Assembly: GCA_963769025.1 (NCBI GenBank)
Contig: CAVYKI010000009.1
Span: forward strand, 320,001-384,000
From: an uncultured Verrucomicrobiae bacterium
Lineage (GTDB): Bacteria > Verrucomicrobiota > Verrucomicrobiia > Chthoniobacterales > Chthoniobacteraceae
Length of the DNA: 64,000 nt
Reading direction: 5' to 3'
Each line of letters begins with the position of its first letter. Position 1 is the first letter of the stretch. The notes beneath the pieces were generated by a model. That model saw nothing but the letters and a program-made list of their open reading frames with translations, searched no databases and had not been told where the DNA came from. Positions 51,689-63,980 of this stretch are shown here, piece after piece. The translations under genes were made by a program, and so were the position numbers.

Positions 51689-53347
51689 ATGACTTCCTCC
51701 CCGTTTTTCCGGATCGCCGCAATTCTCGCATTCGCTTTTTCCTCCGGCTTTGCCTTCGCGGCAGGACCCGCGCGACCAAATGTCCTGCTCATCCTCGCCG
51801 ATGACATGGGATTTTCCGATGCGGGGTGCTATGGCGGGGAGATCCGTACGCCGAACCTCGATGCGCTCGCGGCAAACGGCCTGCGTTTCACGCAATTCTA
51901 CAACACAGCGCGTTGCTGGCCTTCGCGCGCGGCGATCCTCACCGGCTACTACGCGCAGGCGGTGCGCCGCGATTCCATCCCCGGAGTCCCGAGCGGCGGA
52001 AAAGGGGCGCGTCCCGCGTGGGCAAAGCTGCTGCCGGACATGCTCAAGCCGCTCGGCTACCGCTCGTATCTCTCGGGAAAATGGCACGTGGACGGGAAGC
52101 CGACGGAGAACGGCTTTGACCACTCGTACGTGCTGGATGACCACGACCGGAATTTCAACCCGCGCCGCCATTCTGAGGACGACAAGCCGCTCCCACCGGT
52201 GGCTGCGGACAGCGGCTATTTTTCGAGCACGGCGATCGCCGATCACGCGATCAAATGCCTGAAGGAGCACGCGGAGAAATACGCCGACCGGCCGTTCTTT
52301 GAATACCTCTCGTTCATCGTGCCGCATTTCCCGCTGCAGGCGCCCGCGGAGGACATCGCGCGCTACAAGGACAAGTATCTCAAAGGCTGGGAGATCGCGC
52401 GTGAGGAGCGCTTCGGGCGGCAGAAAAGGTCGGGCCTCGTGAACACGACGTTGTCCGCCATCGAGCGGGATCTCGGGCCGCCGTATGCATTTCCGGCGGA
52501 GCTCGCGAAGCTCGGGCCGGGGGAGATCAACCGTCCGCTCCCGTGGACGGAACTCACGACGCAGCAGCGCGAGTTTCAGGCCACCAAGATGGCCATCCAC
52601 GCGGCGATGGTGGACCAGATGGATCAGCAGATCGGCCGCGTGCTCGAGCAGGTGAAGGCGATGGGTGCGCTCGATAACACGCTCGTGCTTTTCCTCTCCG
52701 ACAACGGCGCGAGCGCGGAGATCATGGTGCGCGGCGACGGCAACGCTCCGGGTGCGGTGCCGGGTTCCGCCGGGAGCTTCCTCTGCCTCGGGCCGGGATT
52801 TTCCAGCGCCGCAAACACGCCATTCCGCCGCCACAAGACGTGGGTGCACGAGGGCGGCATCGCCACGCCGTTCATCCTGCAATGGCCAAAGGGCATCGCC
52901 GCTCGCGGGGAATTGCGGCACAATCCCAGCCACCTCGTCGATCTCGTGCCGACGATCTTGGAAATCGCAGGAGGTAAGGCGCCTGCGACATTGGACGGAA
53001 AGCCCGTGCCTCCAGCGCACGGCAAGAGCCTGGTGCCCGTTTTCGCAAAGGATGGCGCGGTTGCCCATGATTCGCTGTGGTGGTTGCATGAGGCGAACCG
53101 CGCGCTGCGTGTCGGTGACTGGAAGATCGTGGCCGCGGGCGCGGACAGCGCATGGGAGCTCTACGACCTCTCGACGGATCGTGCGGAATCCAAAAACCTC
53201 GCCGCAAGCCAGCCGGAGCGCGTGAAGGAGATGGCGCAACTCTGGACGCAGCGGACGGAGGAGTTCCGGGCGCTCGCGCTCAAGGATCTGCAACCGGGTG
53301 CCGAGGCTCAGCCAAAGAAGCGAAACAAGGCCGGTGCTGTGCAGTAG
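51689..53347 (+). CDS. Arylsulfatase (Cys-type, secreted)
   Basis: PNVLLILADDMGFSD, RCWPSRA, GKWH, PHFPL, SDNGA. Confidence 0.92.
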   Translation: MTSSPFFRIAAILAFAFSSGFAFAAGPARPNVLLILADDMGFSDAGCYGGEIRTPNLDALAANGLRFTQFYNTARCWPSRAAILTGYYAQAVRRDSIPGVPSGGKGARPAWAKLLPDMLKPLGYRSYLSGKWHVDGKPTENGFDHSYVLDDHDRNFNPRRHSEDDKPLPPVAADSGYFSSTAIADHAIKCLKEHAEKYADRPFFEYLSFIVPHFPLQAPAEDIARYKDKYLKGWEIAREERFGRQKRSGLVNTTLSAIERDLGPPYAFPAELAKLGPGEINRPLPWTELTTQQREFQATKMAIHAAMVDQMDQQIGRVLEQVKAMGALDNTLVLFLSDNGASAEIMVRGDGNAPGAVPGSAGSFLCLGPGFSSAANTPFRRHKTWVHEGGIATPFILQWPKGIAARGELRHNPSHLVDLVPTILEIAGGKAPATLDGKPVPPAHGKSLVPVFAKDGAVAHDSLWWLHEANRALRVGDWKIVAAGADSAWELYDLSTDRAESKNLAASQPERVKEMAQLWTQRTEEFRALALKDLQPGAEAQPKKRNKAGAVQ

Positions 53348-53386: not shown

Positions 53387-53415
53387 AAAAAAGAACGCAG
53401 CCCGAAGGCTGCGTT
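53387..53415 (-). terminator. Intrinsic terminator
   Basis: AACGCAGCC-TTCG-GGCTGCGTT-C-TTTTTT on the minus strand (perfect 9-bp stem, cUUCGg loop). Confidence 0.85.
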
Positions 53416-53479
53416 GCGGAGGCTGCTGGAAGGTAAGTTAGACTTTGTATATTTATGTCGTGGCTTCCAAGCCCCGCGC
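53387..53479 (-). ncRNA. Candidate sigma-54-dependent small RNA (~93 nt)
   Basis: Sigma-54-type promoter upstream, ~15-bp 5' stem with A/U-rich loop, UUCG terminator hairpin and U6; no minus-strand gene nearby to explain these signals. Confidence 0.65.
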
Positions 53480-53488
53480 ATGTGGTTT

Positions 53489-53506
53489 AAGCAGCAGCCG
53501 TGCCAA
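53489..53506 (-). promoter_or_regulatory. Sigma-54 (-24/-12) promoter
   Basis: TTGGCACGGCTGCTGCTT versus consensus TGGCACG-N4-TTGCW; exact GG-N10-GC spacing. Confidence 0.7.
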
Positions 53507-53520
53507 GTCGCTGATCTTGG

Positions 53521-53549
53521 TTGAGCGAAGGCGGCGAGCCCGGTAGCTT
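53521..53549 (+). promoter_or_regulatory. Putative sigma-70 leaderless promoter of the pseudopilin-ABC operon
   Basis: TTGAGC-N17-TAGCTT-N6-ATG(53556). Confidence 0.5.
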
Positions 53550-53555
53550 TTCACG

Positions 53556-54116
53556 ATGCGTCCCAACTGGATCAAAGTCGCCGTCGTCCTCGTCGCCCTC
53601 TGGGCGATCATTTACGGCGCGACAACGGTCGTCCGAAGGAACAGGCCGACGCCGGAGACCATCGCCGCATTTGTCGCCACGAACAGCCTCGACGGGAAGG
53701 CCCCCGCGGAGCGCGCGAAGCTCATCGAGGCGGTGGCCTCGAAGGTGAACCGCCTCGAATACGACCAGCGGCGTGAACTGAATCAGCAACGGAAGGTCGA
53801 GGGTTTCTGGAACGCGCTGACCGCCGAGGAAAAAGGGCGCTACCTCGACCTCGTGCTCCCGACCGGTTTCAAGCAGATGATGGAGAACTTCAACAAGATG
53901 GAGCCCGGAAAGCGGAAGCGCATGGTGCAGAAGGCGGTGGAAAACCTCCGCTCCGACGAAGGCGAAGGGCCGCCGCGCAATCTCAACGACCCGCAGCTCC
54001 GGAAGATCGTGGATCAGGGCCTGAAGTCCTTTTACAGCGACGCGACGATCGATGCGAAGATGGACGCGCTGCCGTTCCTGGAGGCGCTGGAGCAAACCGT
54101 GAAGTGGGCGCACTGA
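53556..54116 (+). CDS. Hypothetical membrane-anchored helical protein
   Basis: N-terminal TM segment, helical body; TGATG-coupled to the next gene. Confidence 0.75.
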   Translation: MRPNWIKVAVVLVALWAIIYGATTVVRRNRPTPETIAAFVATNSLDGKAPAERAKLIEAVASKVNRLEYDQRRELNQQRKVEGFWNALTAEEKGRYLDLVLPTGFKQMMENFNKMEPGKRKRMVQKAVENLRSDEGEGPPRNLNDPQLRKIVDQGLKSFYSDATIDAKMDALPFLEALEQTVKWAH

Positions 54117-54673
54117 TGCGCGTTTCCAAAAATACTGTGCGCGCCTTCACCCTCATCGAACTGCTCGTCGTGCTCGCAATCGTTGCGCTGCTCGCGACGC
54201 TCGGGACGGCGGCATGGCAGCGCTCGCAGCGTTACGCCCGGGCCGCGGCATGCATGCAGAATCTCCGGCAGATCGGCGTGGGGCTGAGCCGATACGTCGC
54301 CGAGCACGACGGGGTTTTCCCCGAGTTGGCGATGGCGCGGGCGAACAAGAGCGACAACGTCCCGGTGATCGACACCGAACTGCGCGCTTACGTTCCCGAT
54401 GCGCGCGCATTTGCCTGTCCGGACGACAGCAAGCGCCTCGCGCAGACCTCGGGCACGAGCTACCTCTGGAACACGAAGCTGAACGGCCAGCGCTTGGCGA
54501 CGCTGAGCGTTAGCTTTCTCGCGATGGACCCGATTGACGACCCGAGCCGCATCATGGTGATGGGCGACAAAGAGGGCTTTCACCCAAACCTCGACAACAA
54601 ACTGAACGTGCTCTACGCGGACGGCCACGCCTCGCAGCAGCTGACATTCGTGGACGACGCCCCGCAGAAGTGA
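54116..54673 (+). CDS. Prepilin-type N-methylation protein with H-X9-DG motif (PVC pseudopilin)
   Basis: RA|FTLIELLVV, C..NLRQIG, FACPDD, SY.WN, H...NVLYADGH. Confidence 0.9.
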   Translation: MRVSKNTVRAFTLIELLVVLAIVALLATLGTAAWQRSQRYARAAACMQNLRQIGVGLSRYVAEHDGVFPELAMARANKSDNVPVIDTELRAYVPDARAFACPDDSKRLAQTSGTSYLWNTKLNGQRLATLSVSFLAMDPIDDPSRIMVMGDKEGFHPNLDNKLNVLYADGHASQQLTFVDDAPQK

Positions 54674-55557
54674 TGGAAGCGATCCGGCTGGCGGATTTGA
54701 AAAAGAGTTTCGCAGGAAAGCCCGCGCTGCACGGGCTGTCGTTTTCCGTCGAGCGCGGGGAAATCTTCGGCCTGCTCGGACACAATGGCGCGGGCAAGAG
54801 CACGGCGCTCGGCATCCTGCTCGGGATGGTTTTTCCGGATGGGGGCGAGGCGTTCGTGGACGGCATCAGTGTGCAGCGGGAACGTGCGCGTGCGCTGGCG
54901 AAGGTGGGCGCGATCTTCGAGGCGCCGCGCTTTTACGACTACCTGAGCGGCTGGCGGAATCTGGAAATCTTCACGAGCTACAGCGCCATCGTCTCGCGCA
55001 AGGAGATGCAGGACGCGGTGGAGTTCGTCGGACTCACGGCGCGCATCCATGACAAGGTCGGCACCTACAGTCAGGGGATGCGCCAGCGGCTCGGCGTCGC
55101 CCAGGCGCTGCTTCCGGAGCCGGCGCTCGTGCTGCTCGACGAGCCGACGAACGGCCTCGACCCCGAGGGCATCGCCGAGATGCGCGCGCTCATCCAGCGC
55201 CTGAATCGCGAGCGCGGTTTCACCGTCCTCTTTTGCTCCCACCTGCTCAGCGAGGTGGAGCAGCTCTGCGACCGCGTCGCGATTTTGAATCAGGGCAGCC
55301 TGATCTACTGCGGTCACTGGAAGGAACTCGCGCCGAAGGGTGCGCGCTTCCGCATCGACGCGGAGCCGTGGGGGAATGTCGTGACGCAGTTGAATGGCGC
55401 ATCCGTCGTCGAGCCGGGCGTGATCGAACTGCCGACGGGCGTGGACGTCGCGGATCTCGTCACGCGGCTGGTGCAGGCCGGGGTGAAGGTGCGCGCCGTC
55501 ACGCCGGAGAAACAGACGCTCGAGCAGCTCTATCTGCGGGAGGTTCACAAGCCATGA
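54673..55557 (+). CDS. ABC transporter ATP-binding protein
   Basis: GHNGAGKST, YSQGMRQR, LLDEPTNGLD, SH. Confidence 0.93.
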   Translation: MEAIRLADLKKSFAGKPALHGLSFSVERGEIFGLLGHNGAGKSTALGILLGMVFPDGGEAFVDGISVQRERARALAKVGAIFEAPRFYDYLSGWRNLEIFTSYSAIVSRKEMQDAVEFVGLTARIHDKVGTYSQGMRQRLGVAQALLPEPALVLLDEPTNGLDPEGIAEMRALIQRLNRERGFTVLFCSHLLSEVEQLCDRVAILNQGSLIYCGHWKELAPKGARFRIDAEPWGNVVTQLNGASVVEPGVIELPTGVDVADLVTRLVQAGVKVRAVTPEKQTLEQLYLREVHKP

Positions 55558-55565
55558 GGGGGACA

Positions 55566-55643
55566 ATTTCGGATTTTGGAATTGGGATTTTGAATGATCG
55601 ATTGCCGCGCGCCTCACTCCGCATTCCGCATTCCGCGCTCCGC
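55566..55643 (+). repeat. Two adjacent degenerate heptamer tandem arrays
   Basis: ATTTCGG ATTTTGG AATTGGG ATTTTGA (55566-55593) and ACTCCGC ATTCCGC ATTCCGC GCTCCGC (55616-55643). Confidence 0.75.
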
Positions 55644-55651
55644 GTTTCCCG

Positions 55652-56497
55652 ATGAGACTCTTCCTCCGCCAGTTCTCCGCCGAGTTGCTGAAGCTCTTTG
55701 CGCGCAAGCGCACGTGGATCGGCTTCGGCGCGTTCGTCGGGCTGGAGATCATCGTGCTCGCGCTGCTTCAGACCGAGAAGGCGCAGAAGGGATTCCGCAC
55801 CTTCCTCGAGGGAAATGGCGCGATGTTTGAGGAATACTTCGGCGGGCTCACGCTGGCGTTCAATGTGATGGCGCTCACGGTCGTTTTGCTCGGCGCGCTG
55901 TTCATCGGGCTTGTCTCCGGGGACATCGTGAGCAAGGAGGTTGAGGACGGCACCATGCGGATGACGCTCTCCCGACCGGTGAGCCGCATGCGGGTTCTCG
56001 GTGTGAAATTCCTCGCCTCGCTCCTTTATTGCCTGGTGCTCGTCGTCTTCATCGGCTGCACCGCACTGCTCACCGGCTATGTGTGGCGCGGGCTCGGGAG
56101 CCTGTGCGCGGTCATTCCCGAGGACCGGTTGCTGGCGCTGTTTTCGCCGGGCGAAGGGCTGGTGCGTTACTTCAGCGTGCTGCCCTTCTTTGCACTGAGC
56201 CTCTGCTCCATCGTGTCGCTCGCGTTCATGTTTTCCTGCTGCAACATGAAGCCCGCGGCGGCGACCGTCGTGACGATGGCGATCTTCCTCGTGGATCGCA
56301 TCCTGTACTTCTGGCCGCAATTCGTGTCCTACAAGCCGTGGTTCATGACCACGCACATGGTGACGTGGGTGAATGTCTTCCGGAGCCCGATCCCGTGGGC
56401 GAAGATGGCCGAGGACTACCTCTACCTCTTCGGCCTGAATGCCACGTTCTTCCTCATCGGCTGCACCATTTTCCTGCGCCGCGATCTGAAGTCGTAG
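55652..56497 (+). CDS. ABC-2 type exporter permease
   Basis: ELLKL, E.EDGT...LSRPVSR..V...K, 6 TM segments, terminal F.RRDL. Confidence 0.9.
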   Translation: MRLFLRQFSAELLKLFARKRTWIGFGAFVGLEIIVLALLQTEKAQKGFRTFLEGNGAMFEEYFGGLTLAFNVMALTVVLLGALFIGLVSGDIVSKEVEDGTMRMTLSRPVSRMRVLGVKFLASLLYCLVLVVFIGCTALLTGYVWRGLGSLCAVIPEDRLLALFSPGEGLVRYFSVLPFFALSLCSIVSLAFMFSCCNMKPAAATVVTMAIFLVDRILYFWPQFVSYKPWFMTTHMVTWVNVFRSPIPWAKMAEDYLYLFGLNATFFLIGCTIFLRRDLKS

Positions 56498-62717: not shown

Positions 62718-63683
62718 ATGAGTTCGCCCGAAAAGCACCCGACCGTCACCGTCGGCGAATTCTACACGCGCCACTCGGAGGAATTGCAGATGAAGCTGCT
62801 TACTGACGAGGGCGTCGGCCTGAACCGGCGAATCCGCGAGCCCACCGTGAACCGGCCCGGTCTCGCGCTGTGCGGCTTTTATTCGTATTTCGCGGAAAAG
62901 CGAATCCAGGTCCTCGGCTCGGCGGAACTTTCATACCTCAAGAGTCTTTCGGAAAAGGAAATGCGGCAGCGGTGGAGCGCGATCTGCGAGCGTCCGATCC
63001 CGTGTCTCATCGTCGCGCGGCACTATCGCGTGCCCGAGGATCTGCTGGCGGTCGCAAAGGAAAACGGCGTGGCGGTGTTTTCGACGCCGATGGTGACCAT
63101 GCGTTTCATCAACGCGGCGACGCTCGCGTTGGAGTTCGACTTTGCACCGCGCAAGAGCGAGTACGGCAGCATGGTGGATATCCAGGGCATGGGCGTGCTC
63201 ATCCGCGGTTCGAGCGGCATCGGGAAAAGCGAATGCGTCATCGGCCTCATCGAGCGCGGTTATTCGCTCGTGAGCGATGACATGACGCATTTTCGCGCGA
63301 TCGAGGGCCGGAACCTGATGGGGACAAGCTCCGAGTTGACGCGCAACTACATGGAGGTCCGCGGACTCGGGGTAATCAACGTGATGGCGATTTTCGGCAT
63401 CGGCGCCGTCCGGCGCGAAAAGCGGCTCGACCTGGTGGTGACGCTCAAGGACTGGCAGGAGATCGAGGACATCGATCGCACGGGGCTGGAGAGCGAATAT
63501 TTTGAACTTCTCGACATCTATGTGCCCCACGTGACGGTCCCCGTGCGGCCGGGTCGCGACATTCCGCGCCTCGTGGAAGTGGCCGCGCTGGACCAAAAGC
63601 TCAAGACCGTCGGCCACAATAGCGCAATGGAATTTAATGAGCGCCTTCTTGCATCCATGCAGAAAAAGAAGAAAGAAAGCTGA
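62718..63683 (+). CDS. hprK: HPr(Ser) kinase/phosphorylase
   Basis: NRPGLAL.G, GSSGIGKSE, LVSDD, MEVRGLG, PVRPGR. Confidence 0.95.
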   Translation: MSSPEKHPTVTVGEFYTRHSEELQMKLLTDEGVGLNRRIREPTVNRPGLALCGFYSYFAEKRIQVLGSAELSYLKSLSEKEMRQRWSAICERPIPCLIVARHYRVPEDLLAVAKENGVAVFSTPMVTMRFINAATLALEFDFAPRKSEYGSMVDIQGMGVLIRGSSGIGKSECVIGLIERGYSLVSDDMTHFRAIEGRNLMGTSSELTRNYMEVRGLGVINVMAIFGIGAVRREKRLDLVVTLKDWQEIEDIDRTGLESEYFELLDIYVPHVTVPVRPGRDIPRLVEVAALDQKLKTVGHNSAMEFNERLLASMQKKKKES

Positions 63684-63980
63684 ATGGGCCTACTGAGCCG
63701 CAACCCCGGAACCAAGATCGAAAGGGAAGTCGAGATTCTAAACAAGCTCGGCCTGCACGCGCGTCCTTGTGCGAAGTTCGTGAAGCTCGCGAGCACCTTC
63801 CGCTCTGAAGTATGGGTGGCGAAGGACAGCGATACCGTGAATGGGAAAAGCATCATGGGCCTGATGATGCTCGCTGCGGGGATTGGCAGCCGGCTCACGA
63901 TCCGATGCGAGGGCACGGATTCCGAACAGGCGCTCGCGGCCATCGAGAAGCTCATCCTTTCAAAGTTCGATGAAGACTGA
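63684..63980 (+). CDS. ptsH: Phosphocarrier protein HPr
   Basis: GLHARP (His15) and NGKSIMGLM (Ser46). Confidence 0.93.
   Translation: MGLLSRNPGTKIEREVEILNKLGLHARPCAKFVKLASTFRSEVWVAKDSDTVNGKSIMGLMMLAAGIGSRLTIRCEGTDSEQALAAIEKLILSKFDED

Follow-up and report, generated by a model that had tools for sequence, protein, structure and literature searches.

An apparently undescribed family of putative sigma-54-driven small RNAs in the Chthoniobacterales

Judged from sequence, a sigma-54 promoter box, a bulged stem-loop, and an intrinsic terminator that lie together in a 64,000-nt stretch of Chthoniobacteraceae DNA (referred to here, in its entirety, as the window) constitute one member of a free-standing gene family of the Chthoniobacterales (Verrucomicrobiota). 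The family is well supported, we infer that it is transcribed, and it appears to be a sigma-54 small RNA that has not been described before. Stand-alone small RNAs (sRNAs) under sigma-54 control are an established kind; this particular family, predicted to specify a folded RNA of ~93 bases, is apparently uncatalogued. In soil and fresh water the Chthoniobacterales are some of the commonest Verrucomicrobiota, and our literature search found no paper describing a regulatory RNA from the order. The promoter is of a signal-dependent type, and the RNA is shared by many relatives of Chthoniobacter, a bacterium of soil and fresh water. Its covariance model works and its distinct sequences number more than 110, so the family can be tested directly in soil metatranscriptomes.

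The window copy occupies the minus strand between two plus-strand genes (Table 1). A first-pass annotation, made from the window's sequence alone, had proposed a sigma-54 promoter, a long stem, and a terminator here, and each of these parts was recovered. The -24 GG lies at 53504-53503 and the -12 GC at 53492-53491, which predicts a +1 near 53479. The minimum free energy fold (-36.7 kcal/mol, z -3.05, equalled by 1 of 200 shuffles) consists of the long bulged stem (53480-53415) followed by a perfect 9-bp terminator hairpin with a cUUCGg loop and a U6 tract ending at 53387. A terminator scan returned a single site, on the minus strand only; its polarity agrees with the promoter and, as had been argued at first pass, is wrong for the sulfatase. 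The proposed inner GAC/GUC stem fared less well. It does form in the window copy, but it is not conserved in the family: it exists by virtue of GACAU, a private A-to-C change, where 11 of 12 close copies read GAAAU or a GAAAU-like word, and the inner helix of the family is formed at another place and, in the window copy, is largely disrupted. Taken alone, the promoter motif is within chance expectation for the window (1 found versus 0.51 expected; 39 of 100 shuffles contain one), so the case for the unit rests on its conservation.

Table 1. Predicted elements of the small RNA unit and its neighbors in the window
Feature	Position	Strand	Basis
Sigma-54 (-24/-12) promoter	53489..53506	-	Sequence; family-wide GG-N10-GC; rpoN in genome
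Predicted ~93-nt small RNA	53387..53479	-	+1 inferred from sigma-54 spacing, +/-2 nt
Bulged stem, 5' arm, GGRA core at its end	53465..53480	-	Covariation
33-nt G-poor apical region	53432..53464	-	Unpaired probabilities, inner-pair covariation
Bulged stem, 3' arm, UYCC core, bulges on 3' side	53415..53431	-	Covariation
Intrinsic terminator: 9-bp stem, cUUCGg loop, U6	53387..53415	-	Terminator scan
Sulfatase gene, convergent neighbor outside the unit	51689..53347	+	Pfam Sulfatase, E 6e-54
186-aa gene, divergent neighbor, one clade only	53556..54116	+	No Pfam family

The unit recurs widely among relatives. Among 29 same-genus genomes, BLASTN picked up 11 full-length matches, spread over 10 genomes. 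One of these matches is a second copy in a non-syntenic neighborhood with promoter and terminator intact. Across 12 close copies, identity is 100% in the -24 box, 97% in the -12 box, and 59% in the spacer between them; it is 81-88% in the stem arms and 52% in the distal loop, the least conserved part. A covariance model (R2) found matches in 42 of 150 genomes sampled from the family Chthoniobacteraceae; in a sample of the order, a second family had matches in 10 of 15 genomes and a third in 1 of 6. Five weak R2 matches (L148, L164, L166-L168) were set aside ahead of alignment A3 for want of the promoter or stem, and two weak order-level matches (L181, L182) were also excluded. The succeeding model (R3), built from 61 members, gave at least 58 matches at 55 bits or more in 44 of the 150 genomes, with the next match at 36 bits; 23 candidates per genome were scored, so some members may have been missed. 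More than one copy was present in 12 of the 44 carrier genomes, with a maximum of four. Family members extend over 81-104 nt, as cut from model matches, and GG-N10-GC is kept at the same place in 59 of the 61 aligned members, 53 of which carry the strict form TGGCAY-N6-TGCW.

Beyond these samples, a pattern scan of the genome collection yielded 45 loci, 11 of which are family members and 34 are not; 10 of the 11 are labelled Chthoniobacterales, Chthoniobacteraceae, or Spartobacteria and one Prosthecobacter. None of 20 pattern matches in viral contigs is a member. In the samples searched with the model we found no member outside the Chthoniobacterales: a phylum-wide search gave 45 weak matches beyond the source genome (21-34 bits), and the 29 inspected were terminator look-alikes.

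Base pairing is maintained across this divergence. When the 12 close copies are aligned with plain MAFFT, 96.4% of cells are paired; two-sided changes number four, three of them in the terminator and one in the stem. Among the 61 aligned members the paired share of cells is 93.8%, and two-sided changes are seen at 19 of 21 pairs, a level reached by 0 of 500 shuffles, in an alignment that is fitted to the model and whose kindred sequences are not independent. Promoter conservation and stem covariation, which the first-pass annotation had proposed to look for in relatives, both hold in this alignment. An out-of-sample set gave the same picture. Sixty-two metagenome loci, picked by a pattern covering the promoter and 5' arm only, all match R3, 61 of them in full (65-111 bits) and one cut by a contig end. 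After removal of the cut locus and eight duplicates, the core folds onto a distal arm in 52 of 53; the two sides of the core are coupled, GGAA occurring with UUCC in 44 and GGGA with UCCC in 6 of 6, and the terminator test was passed by 49, three of the misses being cut short by the search pattern. Folded singly, 68 of 72 members have z below -2.

De novo analysis was less complete. MAFFT followed by RNAalifold on 72 members recovered the terminator, with two-sided changes in eight of nine consensus pairs, and not the stem. This outcome speaks against the stem, unless it is explained by shifting bulges; the stem was probably missed because bulge positions differ between clades. Applied to an alignment of 12 sequences with the promoter left in, RNAalifold paired bases of the promoter with the 3' arm, which is impossible for the transcript, and we discarded that solution.

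What the family holds constant is the geometry of the stem, a GGRA-NN-CA junction, and a loop poor in G (10% G over 61 members). Some stem nucleotides are kept beyond the needs of pairing (G-G/C-C and G-C/G in 55-60 of 61), and a C and an A of the apical region are each kept in 59 of 61. Above the core, the helix is frequently extended, imperfectly: in 111 of the 117 distinct sequences analyzed, one pair switches between U-A (31), A-U (24), and C-G (6), with 59% paired versus 37% when shuffled. A near-invariant mismatched C adjoins this pair. In the window copy the extension is largely broken and mostly open. Loops fall into size classes of ~22 and ~32 nt, their length shifting by about 10 nt, and paralogues within one genome carry different loops.

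The surroundings of the unit vary. With a rough ORF picker, the downstream gene is convergent in 40 of 61 members and on the same strand in 21, while the upstream gene is divergent in 37, on the same strand in 22, and absent in 2; flanking genes also differ in identity between relatives, the sulfatase side included. A homologue of the 53556 gene is present in 74 of 121 family genomes. The region upstream of this gene, which the first-pass annotation had singled out for comparison, contains the RNA at 6 of 30 orthologous loci inspected, all six from the window's clade, and does not at the other 24. The promoter, stem, and terminator thus move intact between neighborhoods, as would be expected of the independent transcript originally proposed.

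These observations bear on whether the element could act in cis, as an attenuator, a neighbor's terminator, or a small-peptide gene, or as a promoter that interferes with the gene behind it. The promoter does lie 50 nt from the divergent gene in the window's clade. Against such roles, neighbors vary in identity and orientation, the terminator is oriented with the promoter and not with the sulfatase, and the stem covariation implies selection on the RNA itself. Moreover, an ORF of at least five codons is present in only 12 of 72 members, and neither strand holds a conserved one. We rejected the small-peptide gene on this count and on the 11-aa antisense ORF of the window copy, which is not conserved in the family. 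A riboswitch, attenuator, or peptide gene is unlikely, and we consider a cis function as a whole highly improbable.

The divergent gene itself has a weak sigma-70-like pair at 53521-53556 (+), TTGAGC and TAGCTT separated by 17 nt, that ends 6 nt before the ATG; this suggests that the mRNA is leaderless and that its promoter and the sigma-54 promoter stand back to back. TTGAG is seen again within the clade, and our promoter scan did not flag it. The gene opens a conserved cluster (53556-56497, +) encoding the 186-aa protein, a protein with a pilin-like N-methylation signal, an ABC ATPase, and an ABC-2 permease. Farther along, adjoining genes at 62718-63980 (+) encode what we take to be HPr kinase/phosphorylase and HPr.

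The source genome has the machinery that the promoter calls for. As the first-pass reading presupposed, rpoN is present (in an assembly that is 83% complete), together with at least five full-length sigma-54 activator domains. A strict sigma-54 motif occurs at 33 sites genome-wide, 26 of them intergenic, in a genome whose intergenic DNA amounts to only 20% by gene calls. Sites of this type precede rpoN and genes whose products have N-termini like those of pilins, a pilus-assembly protein, and response regulators (labels assigned by eye). We therefore take the motif to be genuinely used in this organism. In a family sample drawn in the same way as that used for the RNA, rpoN was found in 141 of 150 genomes versus 44 of 150 for the RNA, so the patchiness of the latter has causes other than loss of sigma-54. 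The rpoN gene (G000:C3:912433, +) has its sigma-54 box 42 nt upstream of its start, which suggests autoregulation. Two further, near-identical strong sigma-54 promoters (G000:C7:19876, +; G000:C3:146385, -) each have an A/C-rich leader downstream and, with it, a short ORF missed by the gene caller.

Comparison with catalogued RNAs supports the first-pass statement that this is no recognized family. An Rfam 15 scan of the window gave no match at the gathering threshold (best E 2.9, 15.7 bits versus a cut-off of 46), and a scan of five diverged members matched only a neighboring tRNA. The literature search found no description of this RNA family, most subscription papers being outside its reach. 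The main text of a survey of noncoding RNAs in 50 genomes does not mention Verrucomicrobia (PMC11109978).

A -24/-12 box at a fixed distance, rpoN and activators in the genome, a conserved structure, a dedicated terminator, and the lack of a conserved ORF place the RNA among sigma-54-dependent stand-alone sRNAs. We searched carrier genomes for known protein partners of such RNAs. Hfq was not found in any of six (five 94-98% complete, the window's own 83%) and RapZ in none of five; CsrA was found in only one of six, and no cold-shock domain was found in the single genome searched. KhpA/B is present in all five carriers tested, and the source genome has three RRM genes. Qrr and Pxr are likewise short, sigma-54-driven, and stand-alone, with intrinsic terminators, and Qrr is multicopy and needs Hfq. 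CrcZ/CrcY and CsrB/RsmY/RsmZ are activator-dependent decoys that mimic mRNA leaders, CrcZ being sigma-54-driven. The Hfq result sets our RNA apart from both Qrr and CrcZ/CrcY. Csr/Rsm decoys expose repeated GGA motifs, whereas here a single GGA lies inside a covarying stem without repeated motifs, in genomes mostly lacking a detectable CsrA. In the sRNAs that display an anti-Shine-Dalgarno loop (cuckoo/CcsR), that loop bears a CCUCCU-like motif; here 13 of 72 members contain CCUCC or CUCCU, the frequent loop words do not include it, and the window copy carries it in the paired 3' arm. We rejected this function.

The closest working likeness is to GlmY (taken with GlmZ) of the Enterobacteriaceae, a sigma-54-driven decoy recognized through a bulged stem. 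GlmY is the larger RNA, with three stem-loops. It is transcribed by sigma-54 and needs an enhancer-binding activator (PMC3045617), and it sequesters RapZ through a bulged central stem-loop (PMC4737144). The Chthoniobacterales RNA is not a member of this group, given the absence of detectable RapZ from the carriers tested and of any Rfam match.

The first-pass annotation had offered two functions, trans-acting or protein-sequestering, and had placed function in the exposed A/U loop. The latter placement is not borne out, the distal loop being the part that close relatives conserve least. As to the former, the evidence leans toward protein binding over pairing with mRNA. Pairing would involve an Hfq-independent sRNA whose loop, or the GCCACGA at its base, binds one or several mRNAs, perhaps with help from RRM or Khp proteins in the manner of FopS. 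There are reasons to take this seriously. Over the 12 close copies the opening 10 bases of the loop show 97% identity even though their pairing partner has decayed, which has the look of an antisense seed; clade-specific loop motifs recur (ACGUU in 22 of 61), and loops differ between paralogues of a genome. Precedent exists in another lineage with RRM proteins (PMC11697453), and target prediction is weak without a multi-genome method.

Our searches for targets were nonetheless negative. Against about 4,300 start regions, 11 of 12 shuffled loops did better than the loop's own best duplex (-23.3 kcal/mol), and the longest perfect complements were no longer than those of four shuffles. The complement of a conserved 7-mer seed occurs in 22 of 4,323 start regions versus a mean of 24 for its permutations. 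Two candidate sites, before genes that we take to be uvrC and pirin, are not conserved among carriers: of 11 RNA-bearing relatives one keeps the uvrC site, and of 10 none keeps the pirin site, or one if a loose match is allowed. No antisense candidate was therefore better than shuffles or conserved, and for coding regions the check covered one 10-mer. Leaders in the source genome are G-poor, so the A/C loop has little to pair with. A cross-phylum family of short, stand-alone sigma-54 sRNAs with intrinsic terminators and a name like QrsI is reportedly predicted to target EF-Tu mRNA; our literature search did not find it. Such RNAs would be complementary to the cognate tuf start region, whereas here only 2 of 26 RNA-tuf pairs in 19 genomes reached p<0.05 (mean p 0.67), in a test that covered genomes outside the closest clade; tuf was not found in the window's assembly. 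On those genomes we rejected EF-Tu as the target. We regard mRNA pairing in general as quite possible, and protein binding as more likely than pairing with one mRNA.

FopS of Bacteroides thetaiotaomicron offers the most explicit comparison. It is a multicopy sRNA family that acts with RbpB, an RRM-1 protein that prefers single-stranded regions (PMC11697453), and comprises 14 copies with housekeeping-type promoters, a shared sequence motif, and demonstrated mRNA repression. The RNA described here resembles FopS in being multicopy and in occurring, in the source genome, alongside RRM genes with no Hfq match; it differs in its 1-4 copies per genome, sigma-54 promoter, variable loop, and lack of an identified target.

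Our best reading, held tentatively and at a little short of even confidence, is that the RNA is a sigma-54-induced protein-binding or decoy RNA; its partner and the titration step are conjectural. A non-coding, trans-acting RNA would be switched on by a sigma-54 enhancer-binding activator in response to some signal, as its promoter implies. Its fold would be a bulged rod, with a G-poor single-stranded loop at the tip and its own terminator at the end, an arrangement to which covariation points, and it would then bind and titrate an RNA-binding protein. The stem, whose bulges are fixed, may form the recognition surface together with the GGRA-NN-CA junction, with the A/C/U loop possibly imitating the unstructured leaders that serve this lineage in place of Shine-Dalgarno (SD) sites. 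RRM-domain proteins, KhpA/B, or ribosomal protein bS1 are candidate partners. Counted in favor of protein binding is that stem positions and the mismatched C are kept while the distal loop is free to vary. Counted against the decoy reading are the presence of the RNA in 44 of 150 genomes versus 141 for rpoN and the fact that no co-occurring protein was identified. In genomes in which we found neither Hfq nor RapZ and mostly no CsrA, a conserved multicopy RNA could serve as bait for the phylum's post-transcriptional control protein.

A more specific form of the decoy reading, which we think rather unlikely, is that the RNA mimics the SD-less, A/C-rich leaders found on highly expressed mRNAs and occupies bS1, 30S subunits, or an RRM protein without offering a start codon, lowering or redirecting translation. 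As 6S RNA is a decoy for RNA polymerase, this would be a decoy for translation initiation. An SD-like word precedes only 338 of 4,327 called genes in the source genome, whose 16S tail keeps a normal anti-SD, and the leaders poorest in G are A/C tracts. The genes with the most G-poor leaders presumably include rpsF, rpmA, groES, groEL, recA, and superoxide dismutase. Most tuf leaders of the same family are also G-poor and A/C-like, and those of the second family carry an SD (tuf loci L220-L247). Scored per base with a model of G-poor leaders, loops (-1.37) resemble tuf leaders (-1.35) more than their own reverse complements do (-1.90). Beyond composition, however, the likeness is slight (z 0.76, with the reverse-complement control at 0.44), and loops are richer in U and poorer in C than leaders; the likeness may be a by-product of the loop staying single-stranded, which in any such RNA demands low G. 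AUG occurs in 1 of 61 loops versus 14 expected from shuffles, a scarcity that may just reflect where the few Gs are placed. The accessible part of a preprint on the diversity of translation initiation does not mention Verrucomicrobia (10.1101/167429).

The open loop could also serve as a sponge for another small RNA, or as the place where a nuclease processes a precursor, as in GlmZ or Pxr; we consider this pair of possibilities improbable. In favor of processing, RNase E typically acts on A/U-rich single strands carried by a stable stem. In favor of the sponge, the same order has a second family of sigma-54-driven hairpin RNAs, G-rich at the tip, and a relative of this family is present in the source genome. 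However, the predicted pairing between the loop and this second RNA is matched by 74% of 300 shuffles, the co-fold gains 1.5 kcal/mol, and the second family occurs mostly in families where the first RNA was not found. With pairing no better than that of shuffles, we rejected the second RNA as the sponged partner.

This second family folds as a rod, CAGCCCGG.. / ..CCGGGCUG, with an inner hairpin tipped by a G-run, and has no Rfam match. A U-tract ends it in seven relatives from four other Chthoniobacterales families (L252, L253, L256, L258, L268-L270); the copy in the source genome (G000:C4:10105-10275, +; L284) is longer and without a U-tract. Pairing would be possible between its G-rich tip and the C-rich positions directly ahead of start codons in the source genome (51-53% C at -2/-1). 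Additional units that combine a sigma-54 promoter, a conserved word, and a U-tract were seen in other families of the Verrucomicrobiia (G615, G575, G545; G552, which is L283, and G299; G629, G314), and are probably more undescribed sRNAs or leaders.
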